From NCBI RefSeq assembly GCF_046483665.1, contig NZ_JAWOCR010000013.1:4129-68128 (forward strand): 64,000 nucleotides of DNA, written 5' to 3'. Position numbers and translations under genes: made by a program. Positions 39,578 through 51,284 of this stretch are shown piece after piece. Source of the DNA: Thiohalophilus sp. GTDB lineage: Bacteria; Pseudomonadota; Gammaproteobacteria; UBA6429; Thiohalophilaceae. The first letter of the stretch is position 1. Each line of letters opens with the position of its first letter. The notes under the pieces are model-generated. The model was not told the DNA's origin and ran no database searches. It worked only from the letters and a program-made list of their open reading frames with translations.

Positions 39578-39723
39578 AACTGGATCGGTAGTGAAGTGAT
39601 TATTTCGCGCCAGATGACTTGAAATGATGACACTACACAGGTCTATAAAAACAATAAACCAGGCCACAGGTTCCCCCTTGCAGGTACAGCCCTGACCTTG
39701 TCCTGTCACAGGTGAGAGACCAG

Positions 39724-41403
39724 ATGGAACATATCATCATACTGATAACGGGTTTACAGATTCTCTCGGCCTTGTTGACCCATCTATTGACCCCCCGCCT
39801 GGGTCGGCAAGTTGCGCGCCTGAGCGTCACCGCAACAGCACTCACTTTCGCTCTGTCTGTCGCTGCCCTGTGGATGGTCCTGAACGGGCACAGCCGGCAA
39901 ACTGTCAACCTGTTCGATTCCGGTATGCTTCTGTTGCTCGACCCGCTAAGCAGCCTGATGGCCGTGCTCATCGCCGGGATCAGTCTGGTCGTTCATGTGT
40001 ATTCCCTGCGTTATATGGCCGAAGAAACCGGTTACAGCCGTTTCTTCGTGCTGCTCGATCTGATGACCGCTACATTGCTGGTGATGGTATCCGCCGGGGA
40101 TCTACTGACTCTGCTTATCGCCTGGCATCTGGTCGGGGTTCTGCTCTATTTTCTGCTTGGCCAGAATACCCGTGATGTCTCGGCGTATCGCTATGCCTTC
40201 TGGACCAAGATCACCTATCGCATCGGCGATCTGCCGTTGCTGATTGCCGCGGTGTTGCTCTACCAGGCCTACGGCACCGGCTCGCTGCCGGCGATATTCG
40301 AACAGATCAGCACCGAACCGGGCCCCCATCAGGTGCTGGGCTGGCCGCTGATGGATTTGGTCGCGGGGCTCATTGCCCTGGCCGCCTTCGCCCGCTCGGC
40401 CCAGTTTCTGTTGCATACCTGGCTACCTTACTCCATGTCGGGACCGACACCGGTGTCGGCTCTGATGCATGCAGGGATCGTTAATGCCGGCGGATTTTTG
40501 ATCAACCGCTTTGCACCGGTGTTCGTGCATAGCTCGGAGATCCTGCACTGGGTCTTTATCGTCGGCCTGTTTACCGCCGTCATAGGCTCGGTATTGATGC
40601 TTATCCAGAACGACATCAAGAAATCCCTGGGTTATTCCACCATGGGCCAGATGGGTTTTATGATCATGGAATGCGGCATTGGCGCCTTCTCCCTGGCCAT
40701 TTATCATTTGATTGCGCACGGTTTGTTCAAGGGTACCCTGTTTCTGGGAGCCGGCGGGGTGATCAATGCCGCACGCAAGAACGATGGCGTGCCCAAACAA
40801 GATCTGTATACCTTCGTGATTGAACGCCGGCCGGTACGACAACGTGTACCCTGGTTATTGATGGCGGCAATCACCCTGGCGGTGCCAATTACTATCCTGG
40901 TATTCGCCCATTGGGTGGTCTCGGAAGATTACTTCCAGAAACAGAGCGCCATCGTGTTGCTGTTTTTCGGGTGGATGACCGGGGCGCAATTAATCTTTGC
41001 AGTTTACCGGATGCAAACCGGGAATCTGCACCGACTGGTTATGCTGAGTATCTTCTCGTTTGCGATAGTTGTTCTCGGCTATACCCTGATAAGTCACGCT
41101 TTTGACCTGTTCCTCTATCCCGATCCGGCATTTCGCGATCAAATCTACGCGGCAGCGGATTTCGAGTTAATCTGGTTCGATGTTCTGGTCATCCTGGTTG
41201 CACTGGTCATCATCTTTGGCTGGATTAGCACCAGCTTTAACGATCAACACTATCATCCCAGGGGCGAGTATCGTCGACGACTGTGGTTATCGTTCTATGC
41301 GCTGATCTCGCGCGAATTGTATATTACCGATCTGTATACACGAATCAGCCGTGCACTGCTGTCTGTGGCCGGACGGCTCAATCTCTGGTTGAGGTGGCTC
41401 TGA
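39724..41403 (+). CDS. dabB: DAB inorganic carbon pump membrane subunit (NuoL/MrpA-like, PF00361)
   Basis: Multi-TM; SAQFLLHTWLPYSMSGPTPVSALMHAGIVNAGG, KKSLGYSTMGQMG, HLIAHGLFKGTLFL; operonic with a DUF2309 gene. Confidence 0.88.
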   Translation: MEHIIILITGLQILSALLTHLLTPRLGRQVARLSVTATALTFALSVAALWMVLNGHSRQTVNLFDSGMLLLLDPLSSLMAVLIAGISLVVHVYSLRYMAEETGYSRFFVLLDLMTATLLVMVSAGDLLTLLIAWHLVGVLLYFLLGQNTRDVSAYRYAFWTKITYRIGDLPLLIAAVLLYQAYGTGSLPAIFEQISTEPGPHQVLGWPLMDLVAGLIALAAFARSAQFLLHTWLPYSMSGPTPVSALMHAGIVNAGGFLINRFAPVFVHSSEILHWVFIVGLFTAVIGSVLMLIQNDIKKSLGYSTMGQMGFMIMECGIGAFSLAIYHLIAHGLFKGTLFLGAGGVINAARKNDGVPKQDLYTFVIERRPVRQRVPWLLMAAITLAVPITILVFAHWVVSEDYFQKQSAIVLLFFGWMTGAQLIFAVYRMQTGNLHRLVMLSIFSFAIVVLGYTLISHAFDLFLYPDPAFRDQIYAAADFELIWFDVLVILVALVIIFGWISTSFNDQHYHPRGEYRRRLWLSFYALISRELYITDLYTRISRALLSVAGRLNLWLRWL

Positions 41404-41404
41404 T

Positions 41405-42166
41405 ATGATCGATACATGGGTATATCTGCTGATCGGCCTGTTCCTGCCGCTATTCCCGCTAAGCATGGGCTTCAACTTCGTACTGGGGCGTAGTCGCTCT
41501 GTCCTGTTGCGCATCCTGTTGTTGCTGTTCTGGCCACAAATCGGTCTGATCCTGTTACAAACAGTGAACAGCCCCGTACCCGGCTGGATGGTCCCCCTGG
41601 CCCTGTTCACTGCCACACTGTATGCCCTGCGCGCCCTGGCCCTGCGCGAGGTGGGACAGTGGAGCGGATTCCTGGCTACTTCGGCCTGGGCCTTGTTGTG
41701 GGTCGTGCTGCGGGGCGATCTGCCGGTACTACAGCTGCATCTTTTTGCGCTGGGCTTCAGTACGCCCCTGGCTTTACTGGCACTGCTTGGTGCCGGGCTG
41801 GAACGCCGCTTTGGCGCCGCGTATACCGGCCTGTACGGCGGACTGGCCGAATCGATTCCCCGATTCAGCACGATACTCGTGCTGGTAGTGCTGGCAATTA
41901 TCGCCACACCGCTGTTCCCGACATTTTTCATCATGCTCGTCACCGTCGTGCAGGCGGTCACGCTCATGCCGCTGGTGGCCGTCAGTGTCGCCCTCGTCTG
42001 GTTACTCTGGAGCTGGGCCGGCGCGCGCCTGTTGCAGGGATTAATCGTCGGCCCCGCAGGAGTCAATAAGGTAATCGACCTGAATCGCTTCATAACCGGC
42101 GCTTATGCGCTGGCATTAACCCTTCTGGTCGCAAGCGGTGTGTACAGCATCGGAGTCCTGTTATGA
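41405..42166 (+). CDS. Third, antiporter-half-like membrane subunit of the DAB operon
   Basis: 253 aa, about 7-8 TMs; GAGLERRFG...YGGLAESIPRF...ATPLFPTF resembles the C-terminal half of NuoM; ATGA overlap with dabA. Confidence 0.75.
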   Translation: MIDTWVYLLIGLFLPLFPLSMGFNFVLGRSRSVLLRILLLLFWPQIGLILLQTVNSPVPGWMVPLALFTATLYALRALALREVGQWSGFLATSAWALLWVVLRGDLPVLQLHLFALGFSTPLALLALLGAGLERRFGAAYTGLYGGLAESIPRFSTILVLVVLAIIATPLFPTFFIMLVTVVQAVTLMPLVAVSVALVWLLWSWAGARLLQGLIVGPAGVNKVIDLNRFITGAYALALTLLVASGVYSIGVLL

Positions 42167-45100
42167 CATTACCACTGGGACAACAGCTGAAAATTCGCAG
42201 CATGATTTACGTGGCCGGCGAACCGATCCCGTTTTTCTGGCCCATGCGTTCATTCATTCACCATAATCCACTGCATGGCCTGGAGCATCTCCCCTTCCCC
42301 GAAGCCGTGGAAACCGGCGCGCAACTGTTTCAGGGGCGTGGCTTTTTATCCCGACACGAATACCAGCGTTATCTGGCACAGGGCAAGGTCGATCGGGGTG
42401 CGCTGAGCGCCGGGATCGCCGACTTTGTGGCGCAGCAGCCGGCAATCACCGGCGTCAATCTGTCTCACTGGTTGATGACATTACTCACCTGCAACGAACA
42501 ACCGGTCATGCGGACCCCCTCTTTGGCCAACACAAACGAAGTGCATGCCGTTATAAACCAAACCGAATACGCCGCGGCGACACTCGATACCGATACCCTG
42601 ACGGCGAGGCTGTATGACACGCTGCTGGGCGCCTGTCCTTTATATGAAGCTGTGGACCGACTCTATGGTACCGGGATCGGCGCTGAACTGGATGAGCTGG
42701 TGATCAAAAGCTGTCTTGATTTCTTCGACGAGGGTCAGTCTGTCTGGCACATGCCCGGCCGCAAGCAGGGCCTGTTCAGGGCCTGGCGCGAGCTGGCCCT
42801 GCGCAACGCACGGCTGTTCATGCGCGGTCTGCATATCGAGCGGATTCTAAAAAATGAACAACACCCCGAAGGTGTGATTGCCTCGGTGATGAGCGAGCTG
42901 GGTGTTCCCGAGGATAAATGGGTCAATTGTTTCTCCCGCGAATTATCCCGCCTGCACGGCTGGGCTGGCTTCATTCGCTGGCGTGCCAACGCCAAACATT
43001 ACTACTGGAGCCAGCGATATCCCGCCGACCTGGTCGACTTTCTGGCGATACGTCTGATTCTGGCCTTCGCTCTGCTCACCGAACGCTCTCGTCAGCGGAT
43101 CACCTTCGACCGGCCGTCGCTGGAAAGCCTTATTCAAACCCGGCCCCGGGAAACCTGGCTGCGCCATGAATTATATAGCGGGGCGATACTGCCAGCCTAC
43201 GCGCAACGCGTGGAACAAACCCTGGCACGGGGACGCCCGGACGCGATTGAACAATGCTTTAACGACTATGTTCTTGCCAAACGCCGTTACGAGGCCGAAG
43301 AGCAGGCCGCCCATCTGCGTCAGCTGGCGACCCGCGCCGATGCGAGTGCATCGCTCGAGACCCTGACACCCGATCAGCTGACCACGCTGGTACAGGTCTT
43401 ACAAAAGTTTGAAAGTGCCGAGGGTATGCTCTGGCTGCGCGCGATGGAGGACCATGCCATGGAAAAGATTCTGGGCAAAGTCAATCTGACGCGACCGGTG
43501 GCGCGCGACAAACGTCCCTTTGCCCAGGCCCTGTTTTGTATCGATACCCGCTCCGAGCGAATCCGGCGCCACCTGGAAAGCGCAGGAGATTATCAGACCT
43601 TCGGCATCGCCGGTTTCTTCGGGGTACCTATCAGCTTCATGGAACTGGGCAAGGGCAGTGAAACCTATTTGTGTCCGGTCCTGCTCAAACCGAAAAACCT
43701 GGTTCTGGAAATGTCGGCCAAAACGGGGGAGGATGTGGCCGCCACTACCGTGCTGGAGAAGGTACTGCACGAACTCAAGGAATCAGTCTTCACGCCGTAT
43801 GTCACCGTCGAGGCGATCGGCATGTTGTTCGGCTTTGACATGATCGGCAAAACATTCATCCCACTAAGTTACAACCGCTGGCGCCAGCGTCTGTATCGTG
43901 ACAAACCCTCGACCCATCTGTTACTCGACAAACTGGATCGCGAACAGGCCGACTCCATCGTTCGTGCCGTGCAACGTGCGGTTGTGGCCAAAGCGGTGGA
44001 ACAGGAGTTTGAACTCGAACCTGAAGCCGTGACCGATAACATGATTCGTGAATTGCGGGAAGTTGCGCTGGATCACGCCATACAGGCCCCGATACTGCGC
44101 GAGACGCTGAACCTGAGCCAGGAAGTCGAACAGGCCTTTATCCAGCGCCTGCGTTCGATCTACCGGATTGAGCCGGCCTTCGCCCGTCTGCAAATGGAAC
44201 AGCTGGCGCGGATTGGTTTCAGTCTCGATGAACAGACCAACTTCGTCAGTCAGGCCCTGCACTCGATCGGCCTGAACCGGGATTTCTCCCGCTTCATCGT
44301 GCTGGTCGGCCACGGCAGCACCTCCGAAAATAATCCCTATGAATCAGCGCTCGATTGCGGTGCCTGCGGCGGCAATCACGGGCTGATCAATGCCCGCGCG
44401 CTGGCCCAGATGGGCAATAACCCCCGGATCCGTCAGCGGCTGCGTGCCCAGGGAATCGAAATCCCCGACGATGCCTGGTTCCTGCCGGCCCTGCACGACA
44501 CCACCACTGATGAGATCAAACTGTTCGATCTCGATCGACTGCCTTCCTCGCACCTGGTCTATCTCGATCGCCTGCGCAGCGGCCTGACCGGCGCCTCACG
44601 GATGTGTGCCCAGGAACGACTCCCCGAATTGCAACTGACGCCGGGACAATGCGATCCGACCGAGGCCAATCGCCGTGCCCGCCGCAACGCAATGGACTGG
44701 TCGCAAGTGCGTCCGGAATGGGGTCTGTCCGGCAACGCCTATTTCATTATCGGCCGCCGTCAGCTAACCCGGCACCGGTCATTAAAAGGCCGCGCCTTTT
44801 TGCATTCCTATGACTATCGCGTCGATCCCAAACGACGTCTGCTGGAGACTATTCTCACCGGCCCGCTGGTAGTTGGCCAGTGGATTAACATGGAACACTA
44901 TTTTTCCACCGTGGATAACGAGCGCTTTGGCAGTGGCAGTAAGGTCTATCACAACGTGGCCGGGCGCTTCGGCGTAATGACCGGCAACCTCAGCGACCTG
45001 CGCACCGGTCTGCCGGCCCAGACCGTACTCGATCAGGGACAGCCCTATCATCAGCCCATCCGCCTGATCACGGTCATCGAAGCCCCCTACGAATATGCCC

Positions 45101-45279
45101 GTCAGGCCATCGAGGAAATCGCTACGATCAAGAATCTGGTGCGTAACGGATGGATACGGATTTTGATCATCGATCCTGAACAACAGACAGCCCATATCTA
45201 CGACCACGACGCCTGGCGGAGCCGGCCGTTATCCAGTGGCCATGCGGATGAAAAACCCACGGAGTCCACAGCCTCATGA
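42163..45279 (+). CDS. dabA: DUF2309/UPF0753 beta-carbonic-anhydrase-like DAB subunit (long form)
   Basis: FIHHNPL, LHGWAGFIRWR, Zn ligands FCIDTRSE, VGHGS, DCGACGG; DWSQVRPEWGL, WINMEHYFS. Confidence 0.95.
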   Translation: MTLPLGQQLKIRSMIYVAGEPIPFFWPMRSFIHHNPLHGLEHLPFPEAVETGAQLFQGRGFLSRHEYQRYLAQGKVDRGALSAGIADFVAQQPAITGVNLSHWLMTLLTCNEQPVMRTPSLANTNEVHAVINQTEYAAATLDTDTLTARLYDTLLGACPLYEAVDRLYGTGIGAELDELVIKSCLDFFDEGQSVWHMPGRKQGLFRAWRELALRNARLFMRGLHIERILKNEQHPEGVIASVMSELGVPEDKWVNCFSRELSRLHGWAGFIRWRANAKHYYWSQRYPADLVDFLAIRLILAFALLTERSRQRITFDRPSLESLIQTRPRETWLRHELYSGAILPAYAQRVEQTLARGRPDAIEQCFNDYVLAKRRYEAEEQAAHLRQLATRADASASLETLTPDQLTTLVQVLQKFESAEGMLWLRAMEDHAMEKILGKVNLTRPVARDKRPFAQALFCIDTRSERIRRHLESAGDYQTFGIAGFFGVPISFMELGKGSETYLCPVLLKPKNLVLEMSAKTGEDVAATTVLEKVLHELKESVFTPYVTVEAIGMLFGFDMIGKTFIPLSYNRWRQRLYRDKPSTHLLLDKLDREQADSIVRAVQRAVVAKAVEQEFELEPEAVTDNMIRELREVALDHAIQAPILRETLNLSQEVEQAFIQRLRSIYRIEPAFARLQMEQLARIGFSLDEQTNFVSQALHSIGLNRDFSRFIVLVGHGSTSENNPYESALDCGACGGNHGLINARALAQMGNNPRIRQRLRAQGIEIPDDAWFLPALHDTTTDEIKLFDLDRLPSSHLVYLDRLRSGLTGASRMCAQERLPELQLTPGQCDPTEANRRARRNAMDWSQVRPEWGLSGNAYFIIGRRQLTRHRSLKGRAFLHSYDYRVDPKRRLLETILTGPLVVGQWINMEHYFSTVDNERFGSGSKVYHNVAGRFGVMTGNLSDLRTGLPAQTVLDQGQPYHQPIRLITVIEAPYEYARQAIEEIATIKNLVRNGWIRILIIDPEQQTAHIYDHDAWRSRPLSSGHADEKPTESTAS

Positions 45280-48752: not shown

Positions 48753-49493
48753 ATGCAGATTGGCATTTTAATCATCGGTGATGAAATATTGTCCGGCCGG
48801 CGCCAGGACAAACATCTGGAGTATGTCATTCACACCCTGGCACAGCGCCATCTCACCCTCGCCTGGGCCCGCTACGTGGGTGACGATGAAGCTAACCTGA
48901 TCAACAACTTTAGTAACATAGCGACACAGGGCGATCTCTGCTTCAGCTTTGGCGGCATCGGCGCCACCCCGGACGATATCACCCGACAATGCGTGGCCAG
49001 AGCACTCGACCTGCCCATCGTTCGTCACCCCGGAGCCATCGGCGAAATCGAGGCCCAGTTTGGCGACAAAACCTATCCCCACCGCATCCGGATGGCCGAC
49101 CTGCCGGATGGCGCGGGCCTGATTCCCAACCCCCGCAATCGCATTCCCGGCTTTACCATCGGCCACATCCACTGCCTGCCCGGCTTCCCGGAGATGGCGT
49201 GGCCGATGCTGGAGTGGGTACTGGAAAATCATTACCCCGATCTCAGAGGTACCGAGACGGTACACTACATTCTGAAAGTGCATAACGCCCACGAAAGCGA
49301 GCTGATTCCGCTGATGGAACAGATCCAGCGCGACTATCCGACGCTCAGGATCTCCAGCCTGCCAAAATTCCTGGCCAAGGGTCAGAGTGAAATTGAACTG
49401 GGATTCAAAGGCGATGAAGTCACAGTCAACGCGGCATGTGATGCAATAGCAACCGAGCTGCGGGAGCGCGGCCTGGAAATATCGCCAATGTAA
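48753..49493 (+). CDS. CinA N-terminal-type molybdopterin-binding-fold protein
   Basis: IIGDEILSGRRQD, FGGIGATPDDITR, LPGFPEM; lacks the PncC C-terminal domain. Confidence 0.9.
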   Translation: MQIGILIIGDEILSGRRQDKHLEYVIHTLAQRHLTLAWARYVGDDEANLINNFSNIATQGDLCFSFGGIGATPDDITRQCVARALDLPIVRHPGAIGEIEAQFGDKTYPHRIRMADLPDGAGLIPNPRNRIPGFTIGHIHCLPGFPEMAWPMLEWVLENHYPDLRGTETVHYILKVHNAHESELIPLMEQIQRDYPTLRISSLPKFLAKGQSEIELGFKGDEVTVNAACDAIATELRERGLEISPM

Positions 49494-49523: not shown

Positions 49524-50315
49524 CTAAAACATGAAGGTCAGACTGGCACTGACAGCATCCTCATCAGTAAAACGCCCCTGGAGATCAATAGCCAAGCGAT
49601 CAGTCGGAACGATTGAGACGCCCGCGAATGCCCCGGCCCGGCTATCCATATCGGTAGAACCCAGCTCATAGGTTTTACCACCGGCAGTCGTCGAAGCCGA
49701 ATAATCGCCACCGACAAACTTGATCCCCGCATACGGGGTCAGGCTGTTGAACTTGTAGCTCAAACCCAGTGCCATCTGCCACTGCTCAAAATCAGCATCC
49801 TGTTCGGCAGTCAGCTGTGAACGCGTATAGGATGTTCCATCGACAACAACCGAATCATAATCGCCAGTTTGTACAGCTCGATACTTCAAGTCCGTATTGA
49901 TAGCCAGGCCGCTGGGGTCTTCATACAGCAAGACAGCGATGCCCGCTCCCCAAGTAAACTCATCCGAACGCTTAAAGGTGACATTACTGCCTCTGATCGT
50001 AGCTGTATACTCCAGCCCACTGGCAACCCCAAAATCTGCGTAGATATCTACCCGTTTGGCTACGGAATAAATAACCTTAATAGTGTTGATGCTGGCTTCT
50101 ATTTTTCCCTGATAGTCACTAAGTTCAATTTCATCGATGAAATTGCTCTCAATAGCCATAGCCAGCTTAGCTTTTGCCCAATCCTCACCACCTTGATGAA
50201 CCGTCCCCTTCAAATTCTTTACTCCTGAGGGAAGCGTTACAGGATCGGCATAAAGCGTCGGGATTAGACTAAAAATAATCAGAAATAATGAGGCCCTTGT
50301 AATAAACATGCGCAT
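49524..50315 (-). CDS. Outer-membrane beta-barrel resembling chlamydial MOMP (OmpA/PorB family)
   Basis: Signal peptide, alternating beta-strands, C-terminal Phe; blocks [43 protein letters not shown] and RFTDEDA..FMF match MOMP blocks recalled from memory. Confidence 0.75.
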   Translation of the reverse strand: [263 protein letters not shown]

Positions 50316-50423
50316 TTCAGTATCTTCTTTTTATAAATTTTCAAACAGCATAAATATTATTCGTATAAAGTTCAATGCATAGGGGAAACCATGAAATTGG
50401 CGTATTTACTGGAAGATTCAAAG

Positions 50424-51284
50424 CTACTCGATTAGACGCCGCCTGTGCTCGGCAAGAGCGAACCCCAGCAGAAGCCAGAAGCCTCCGACAAGAAAACCGG
50501 CGGCAACGTCACTCACGTAGTGCACACTCAACAGCATGCGACTGAAACCCACCAGCGCAATCAGCACGGCAGCCCAGTAGATGATCTCGAAGCGCGGTCT
50601 AATCCCGGCAACACGGGTGGCCAGGATGCAGGCGATGAAACCATACACGGCCATGGCGCTGGTCGCATGTCCACTGGGGAACGAAGGCGTTAGTGCGACA
50701 ACTTCCGTGATAAATTCCGGGCGCGGGCGCGCGATCACGTACTTGCCGGTATAGGTGGTAATCTGTGAGCCGATGAGAGTTAACCATAACGGCGCAATCA
50801 TGTAGCCATGACTACGCCCCCACAACAACCCCGTGGTAACGAGGGCCACGGCAACCAGGGTGGCCGAACTGCCAAGATCAGTGATCCAGGCAAACAGGGT
50901 GATCACCCCGTCCGTGCGCAACGGTGCAAGTTGCTGATTGAGCCACTGATCAAACCGGACGAGCTCGTCAGCCTCGAACAGCTCCTCTACCAGTCCCCCG
51001 AACAATGCCGCGAGGTAAAACGCCGCAATGACCACCAGTGTAAGCGGAAGGCCCGTAAACCGATCCGGTGTCAGTCTGGCGTGAAGGAAGCCGGCTGTTC
51101 GGGGAAACCTTGCTTCGAACTTCGCCCCCAGCGCCGTGATATCGTCCCGCTGTCGGACTTGGCTTATGACCGTGATCAAGCGGGAGAAAAGGTACGAAAC
51201 CAATCGCCATCCCCACCAGGCGATCAGCCTGAGTACCACGACTATCGCCAGAATCACCAGTACTATCGCCACTGTCCAGTTCAT
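50424..51284 (-). CDS. PAP2 family membrane phosphatase
   Basis: KYVIARPRP, PSFPSGHA, SRMLLSVHYVSDV. Confidence 0.93.
   Translation of the reverse strand: MNWTVAIVLVILAIVVVLRLIAWWGWRLVSYLFSRLITVISQVRQRDDITALGAKFEARFPRTAGFLHARLTPDRFTGLPLTLVVIAAFYLAALFGGLVEELFEADELVRFDQWLNQQLAPLRTDGVITLFAWITDLGSSATLVAVALVTTGLLWGRSHGYMIAPLWLTLIGSQITTYTGKYVIARPRPEFITEVVALTPSFPSGHATSAMAVYGFIACILATRVAGIRPRFEIIYWAAVLIALVGFSRMLLSVHYVSDVAAGFLVGGFWLLLGFALAEHRRRLIE

Follow-up and report, generated by a model that had tools for sequence, protein, structure and literature searches.

The leading vaccine antigen of chlamydiae is their major outer membrane protein (MOMP), whose cysteines cross-link the chlamydial envelope by disulfides. 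As resolved by cryo-EM, the native protein is trimeric, each protomer being a 10-stranded barrel of shear number 12 whose strands reach above the membrane as a collar and whose variable domains VD1–VD4 build a folded cap that supplies most of the trimer contacts; an N-terminal "stopper" of 12 residues, partly helical, is inserted in the lumen and plugs it from the periplasm (PMC13254160). That study places the periplasmic turns at residues 107–109, 179–181, 257 and 340–342, classes MOMP with the OmpT-like barrels and finds no path for sugars or ATP, the tunnel that appears when cap and stopper are removed being only about 4.3 Å (PMC13254160). The porin role of MOMP is now disputed by this first native structure, its authors allowing for a different state in reticulate bodies and describing recombinant MOMP as folding poorly (PMC13254160). 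MOMP-like multigene families are known only within the Chlamydiae; among the environmental chlamydiae, Simkania has 35 such genes and Waddlia 11. These families and PorB are diverged, often shorter, multi-copy members of the MOMP family (PMC3561449).

The gene considered here lies in a 64,000-nucleotide stretch (the window) of the genome of a Thiohalophilus species, a free-living halophilic sulfur-oxidising gammaproteobacterium and thus a host unlike that of chlamydial MOMP. Its features are as follows.

49524..50315, minus strand: MOMP-like barrel gene, complete ORF, 263 aa plus stop (Pfam, family profile, AlphaFold)
50247..50315, minus strand: predicted signal peptide, aa 1–23, with predicted cleavage after LYA (sequence reading and model helix)
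50211..50246, minus strand: mature N-terminus, aa 24–35, putative counterpart of the MOMP stopper (profile alignment, conservation)
49527..50171, minus strand: 10-stranded beta-barrel, aa 49–263 (DSSP on the AlphaFold model)
50316..50423, minus strand: AT-rich 108-bp spacer between a PAP2 phosphatase gene and the MOMP-like gene (sequence reading; GC about 40% over 50150–50449)

As the first-pass annotation had described from the translation, the ORF, which begins with ATG and ends in SLTFMF, encodes 263 residues, none of them cysteine, and closes on Phe, as outer-membrane barrels usually do. We regard it as near certain that the product is a true homologue of MOMP (PF01308) in both ancestry and fold. 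Pfam Chlam_OMP (PF01308) is matched at 25.5 bits (cut-off 20, E 6.4e-6), ahead of the OmpW and OMP_b-brl matches; the aligned part comprises residues 169–209 (41 residues), and homology over the full length rests on the family profile. The single sequence reaches C. muridarum MOMP (9oq7) in HMMER at E 8.6e-7, through the third and fourth of four MOMP blocks that the annotation had listed in the same order, and the profile of 72 family sequences reaches it at E 4.3e-30, in four collinear stretches (profile 24–261, MOMP 2–365) that take in all four blocks; the next PDB sequence, OmpX, follows at E 0.05. Chlam_OMP is matched by 60 of the 72 family members (best 2.7e-27) and OMP_b-brl, at weaker scores, by 20. 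When 1.84 billion cluster representatives were searched exhaustively with phmmer, they yielded 281 relatives at E<=1e-3 and 87 at <=1e-10, nearly all of 250–275 aa. A word-index homology search with the single protein found Thiohalophilus-level relatives only, and little more when the alignment was used; an NCBIfam search of the protein gave no match.

The likeness to MOMP extends to 10-strand topology, periplasmic turns and C-terminal Phe along the whole length of the two proteins, and to an x-P-V-x-x-P motif at the mature N-terminus (the stopper in MOMP), EWQ..L..SY...PY.G.K and GRF.DE. MOMP differs in being about 100 residues longer, with four variable-domain insertions and a folded trimeric cap that the Thiohalophilus protein lacks; in its eight cysteines, five of them periplasmic, as against none; and in its Mg-binding D311 region, which is not conserved. 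Relative to the family profile its surplus amounts to some 25–45 residues at four sites between conserved blocks, which fit the positions of VD1–VD4. Neither variable domains nor an extracellular cap are present in the profile alignment and the model turns of the Thiohalophilus protein, and its translation contains none of the MOMP-type conserved cysteines. The proposal of a minimal MOMP, free of long variable loops and of cysteines, is thus borne out by Pfam, family profile, model and translation alike, and on the model the protein would amount to the MOMP stem without its cap. Within the Chlamydiae, small homologues of 257–279 aa (L069, L080) can be aligned with the cap-less family over their full length; for one of 262–279 aa from a chlamydial metagenome-assembled genome (MAG), the hhalign probability is 99.8% across 241 columns. 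The chlamydial members retain several cysteines and occupy long separate branches in the tree, whereas the Thiohalophilus protein groups with Omnitrophota.

The AlphaFold2 model built from the 72-sequence alignment is confident (pLDDT 92.9, pTM 0.84). DSSP assigns it ten strands (49–65, 71–85, 89–107, 110–132, 137–158, 161–187, 192–211, 214–235, 241–249 and 253–262), several of them about 20 residues long, with extracellular turns of just 2–5 residues and periplasmic turns at 86–88, 133–136, 188–191 and 236–240, onto which the MOMP turns at 107–109, 179–181, 257 and 340–342 map in the HMMER alignment. The barrel interior carries polar, conserved residues (D142, R146, E178, Q180, R248, D251, E252). 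C-terminal F is found in 67 of the 72 family members, 27 of the 72 are free of cysteine and most have at most two. The N-terminus has the predicted shape of a Sec signal peptide, with a basic n-region, a hydrophobic helix (2–16 in the model) and a small residue at −1; a conserved Ala directly precedes P-V in the family alignment at the predicted cleavage site. The mature N-terminus D-P-V-T-L-P is aligned with L-P-V-G-N-P of MOMP, residues 1–6 of its LPVGNPAEP stopper, the family "PVglPa" standing against MOMP residues 2–9 in the family profile. The columns of A23, D24, P25 and V26 rank with the best conserved in the family (3.0–3.7 bits), V26 and P29 are invariant in a 15-sequence alignment of the closest members, and the model has a short helix of high pLDDT at 30–33. 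Residues 24–35 are the putative counterpart of the MOMP stopper and would, as in MOMP, lie in the lumen.

Foldseek against a PDB library to 2026-04-08, with no MOMP entry (9oq7) among its matches, ranks barrels of 10–12 strands highest (pOmpT, Pla, OmpT and helix-plugged FapF, TM 0.45–0.51). OmpT, Pla and OpcA, each 10-stranded, and the plugged 12-stranded FapF resemble the model in that their strands rise above the membrane, but they share no sequence similarity with the protein (9–12% identity in structural alignments) and are fold-class analogues, not family members. An omptin protease was considered and rejected, there being no omptin Pfam match and a likeness of fold only (TM about 0.5, 11–12% identity); so was the general diffusion porin class of 16–18 strands, with no porin Pfam match, ten strands in the model and TM 0.20–0.26 to the 16-stranded OmpF/OmpC-type porins. 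The Legionella Dot/Icm "porin I" (PDB 9NH1) is described as trimeric, with 10-stranded barrels and no large extracellular cap, which is the architecture expected of a cap-less MOMP; it gave no match to the family profile at E up to 1 and was absent from the top 50 Foldseek matches.

The composition of the gene sets it apart from its genome. A hand count of 43 G+C in 120 nucleotides over 50041–50160 proved exact on recount, and the low GC reported on that basis holds for the gene, the drop over the whole ORF being milder: GC is 48.4% and GC3 49.6%, whereas the 1,233 long ORFs of this genome (2.62 Mb) average 57.2% and 67.2% (z −2.2 for GC and −2.4 for GC3, about the 2nd percentile). Because the amino-acid make-up of the protein predicts 55.2% GC under the codon usage of the genome, the deficit is one of synonymous codon choice. 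Within the gene, GC climbs markedly from 39–43% over the 5' third, which holds the signal peptide and N-terminal region, to 54.5% over the 3' third.

The gene had been called isolated and convergent with its neighbour. The convergent partner is a CinA-like MoCF_biosynth gene with its end at 49493; isolated the gene is only in part, since the same-strand PAP2 phosphatase gene, itself preceded by hisC, hisD and hisG, lies only 108 bp upstream. As read from its letters, the spacer between the two possibly holds the gene's own promoter; a consensus scan gave no sigma-70 match on the gene's strand, and no convincing promoter or terminator. Nor did we find flanking direct or inverted repeats or insertion scars. 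The surroundings form a conserved neighbourhood of about 25 kb, comprising hisD-hisC, cinA, PAP2, RibD_C, a metallo-beta-lactamase-fold gene and DabA/DabB, in which the slot of the MOMP-like gene varies between genomes:

Window: between PAP2 and cinA
G001 and G007: dabB on one side, a PAS-GGDEF-EAL gene on the other
G006: adjoining a GGDEF-EAL gene; an IS element and a group II intron lie close by
83%-identical metagenomic relative: once more convergent with cinA, here with a dCache_1 gene before it

Between genomes the MOMP-like protein is 52–56% identical and the flanking genes 70–93%, a divergence that suits a surface-exposed, fast-evolving accessory gene. In the window, a cluster of DabB, a small ORF and DabA, encoding an inorganic-carbon transporter, occupies 39658–45276 on the plus strand, 4 kb from the MOMP-like gene, and is 84–88% identical to that of other Thiohalophilus genomes; dabB and the MOMP-like gene are transcribed divergently in G001 and G007. 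The IS element (rve integrase) and group II intron reverse transcriptase of G006 (L008 5036–7340) lie a few kb from the pair of MOMP-like and GGDEF-EAL genes and fit a rearrangement-prone region. In the 83%-identical relative (L097/L098), cinA is parted from RibD_C by two genes that the window lacks, an LPG_synthase_TM gene and a gene for a 750-aa GT4 glycosyltransferase; envelope-related accessory genes make the vicinity of cinA a variable islet. We did not accept the GGDEF-EAL neighbour of three Thiohalophilus genomes as a functional linkage, no neighbour being conserved across 74 non-Thiohalophilus loci. The commonest neighbour at these 74 loci is a GGDEF-type protein (19 loci, median distance 4 kb), and PilT, AsmA, FabD and RluB occur at 5–7 loci each.

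Beyond Thiohalophilus, we located the family by scanning one genome per species for a single C-terminal pattern, [QE]GRF[IVT]DE[ETD]A, derived from an 8-sequence alignment, so that the taxon sample is biased to sequences that keep this motif. The scan gave 79 loci, mostly in MAGs labelled Candidatus Omnitrophota or "uncultured Planctomycetia", the others in Desulfobacterota/"Deltaproteobacteria", Kiritimatiellota, Elusimicrobia and two Chlamydiota. At least one copy is present in 36 of 151 Omnitrophota genomes, many of which have 2–5, and three genomes reached through family loci hold 5, 4 and 1 copies. Omnitrophota genomes of 1.4–1.6 Mb may carry 4–5 copies each, and tandem arrays of two or three paralogues occur (L036 5983–8535, L039 5914–8643, L032, L041 and L087; contig C26 of G706 and C31 of G707). 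Contigs labelled Gottesmanbacteria, Patescibacteria, Saccharibacteria and Pacearchaeota (L013, L044, L050, L057) also carry a barrel gene; because these labelled lineages lack outer membranes, the contigs are probably mis-binned Omnitrophota DNA. The "Planctomycetia" sequences (L014–L038, L055, L058 and others) interleave with those of Omnitrophota at near identity, on very short branches, as in L015/L020 and L049/L055, which suggests inconsistent labels rather than transfer.

Among related gammaproteobacteria, orthologues are neither widespread nor syntenic: a match was found in none of 300 other Pseudomonadota genomes, in two of 320 gammaproteobacterial genera (Thiohalophilus and one other) and in none of 24 other genomes of Thiohalophilus's own family. 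The second genus (G141) has a divergent 329-aa homologue (L089, 928–1917, plus strand) that keeps EWQ...PY.G.K and a C-terminal KF and is without the A-P-V motif at the N-terminus. Within Thiohalophilus the gene is present in four of nine genomes. The apparent lack of it in G002, which has the closest PAP2 (87–88% identical), may be an assembly gap, because the contig ends 97 bases past that gene. Contamination or mis-binning of the gene in the window was rejected, its flanks being 70–93% identical to, and syntenic with, those of other Thiohalophilus genomes, including a 3-contig assembly. In an unrooted maximum-likelihood tree of 101 rows, all nine sequences of Thiohalophilus type fall into a single clade (SH-aLRT 100). 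This lies within a larger clade of 34 rows (support 98), made up chiefly of Omnitrophota and otherwise of "Planctomycetia", one deltaproteobacterial MAG and metagenomic sequences. Family loci elsewhere have a median GC of 42%, the closest Omnitrophota loci 37–39%, which matches the direction of the compositional anomaly of the Thiohalophilus gene.

Three other explanations bear on these observations, one of which concerns the origin of the gene. Under it the gene would be an ancient gammaproteobacterial one, inherited vertically but lost from nearly all lineages, and its low GC would stem from expression level or protein constraints, not from a foreign source. Such a history sits well with the single Thiohalophilus clade, with the presence of the gene inside the same 25-kb neighbourhood in four genomes and with the lowered GC that all Thiohalophilus orthologues show, but it would have to accommodate the lack of any match in the 300 other Pseudomonadota genomes and in the 24 other genomes of the family, a single other genus of 320 in the class with a divergent copy, the nesting of the clade among Omnitrophota sequences and a codon-level GC deficit that amino-acid content does not explain; we therefore consider it very improbable. 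Horizontal acquisition, as the first-pass annotation had suggested, is by contrast very probable in view of the nested clade, the distribution, the atypical GC and GC3 and the codon-level deficit; that the gene passed into Thiohalophilus rather than out of it is suggested by the breadth of distribution elsewhere, as read from an unrooted tree and from loci collected with one peptide pattern.

The two remaining alternatives concern what the protein is. Some family members bear the JGI label "opacity protein-like surface antigen", OMP_b-brl is matched by 20 of the 72 and Opacity or OmpW by a few, as might be expected of an ordinary 8-stranded barrel of the OmpA/OmpX/OmpW/Opacity kind whose likeness to MOMP was a chance local match. 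A full-length, collinear match between profile and MOMP at E 4e-30, as against 0.05 for OmpX, ten strands in the model and the 241-column alignment to the small chlamydial homologue at 99.8% probability leave this reading effectively refuted on sequence comparison. The other alternative is a working diffusion porin, in which the cap-less barrel would be a minimal MOMP-type channel for small solutes. In its favour, older liposome and bilayer studies reported porin activity of MOMP and PorB (cited in PMC13254160, PMC3561449), and the conserved barrel interior is polar (D142, R146, E178, Q180). We nevertheless think it unlikely: both the model and the MOMP structure have ten strands, the MOMP tunnel without plug and cap measures only about 4.3 Å (PMC13254160), the plug motif is conserved in the Thiohalophilus protein, the gene is present in only four of the nine genomes of its genus and no transport-related neighbour is conserved. 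Moreover, Porin_4 genes are found in all nine Thiohalophilus genomes, with 1–7 matches per genome; the genome of the window has four, two of them full length, located elsewhere. The idea that the protein is a porin feeding solutes to the neighbouring functions consequently finds no backing in a plugged MOMP (PMC13254160), a model with the same ten strands and plug motif, the ubiquity of Porin_4 and the lack of a conserved neighbour, and we lean, with some reserve, towards its not being a diffusion porin at all.

Taken as a whole, we judge it highly likely that the gene encodes a cap-less MOMP-family barrel, horizontally acquired and accessory, whose lumen is probably self-occluded rather than that of a diffusion porin. 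One could envision the following course. The family of about 260 aa is common and multi-copy in Omnitrophota, and present also in other PVC-group and Desulfobacterota-type MAGs and in environmental Chlamydiota; one copy would have been acquired horizontally by an ancestor within Thiohalophilus and would then have moved between slots of the variable 25-kb neighbourhood while diverging faster than its flanks. The product would be exported by Sec and inserted into the outer membrane by BAM, which its C-terminal Phe would fit, to form a 10-stranded barrel. The conserved N-terminal segment would pack, as in MOMP, against the polar, conserved interior of this barrel, which would be too narrow for a general porin role. 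Because of that narrowness, and because classical Porin_4 genes are present in all nine genomes, we read the protein as most likely an accessory one of the outer membrane, with a structural or surface role and a lumen that it occludes itself. By analogy with MOMP, it is possibly trimeric.

That these proteins match PF01308 is already recorded by annotation pipelines: the match is precomputed for them, and UniRef names one "Major outer membrane protein". Our full-text literature search found no paper on a non-chlamydial MOMP family. What appears undescribed is the cap-less, cysteine-poor architecture when read against the 2026 MOMP structure; the concentration of the cap-less family in Omnitrophota and the transfer of the family into a culturable gammaproteobacterium likewise appear to be undescribed.

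We offer tentatively, as a proposal about which we are more doubtful than confident, that the cap-less form of about 260 aa is both the ancestral MOMP and a principal outer-membrane protein family of Omnitrophota, trimeric and self-plugged, to which the Chlamydiaceae later added loops and cysteines. If this is true, four grafted loop insertions together with cysteines built the antigenic cap and the cross-linked envelope, and the Thiohalophilus copy would provide an expressible, Cys-free stand-in with which solute conduction by the MOMP barrel could be tested. To use the protein as a simple structural model of MOMP, as suggested at the outset, is still a reasonable idea, and with a cap-less, Cys-free homologue, such as the orthologue of the culturable, non-pathogenic T. 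thiocyanatoxydans, the barrel, the plug and trimer formation could be investigated. The MOMP fold extends beyond the chlamydiae; it belongs to a broad family that is enriched in Omnitrophota and that has very probably crossed into a gammaproteobacterium.
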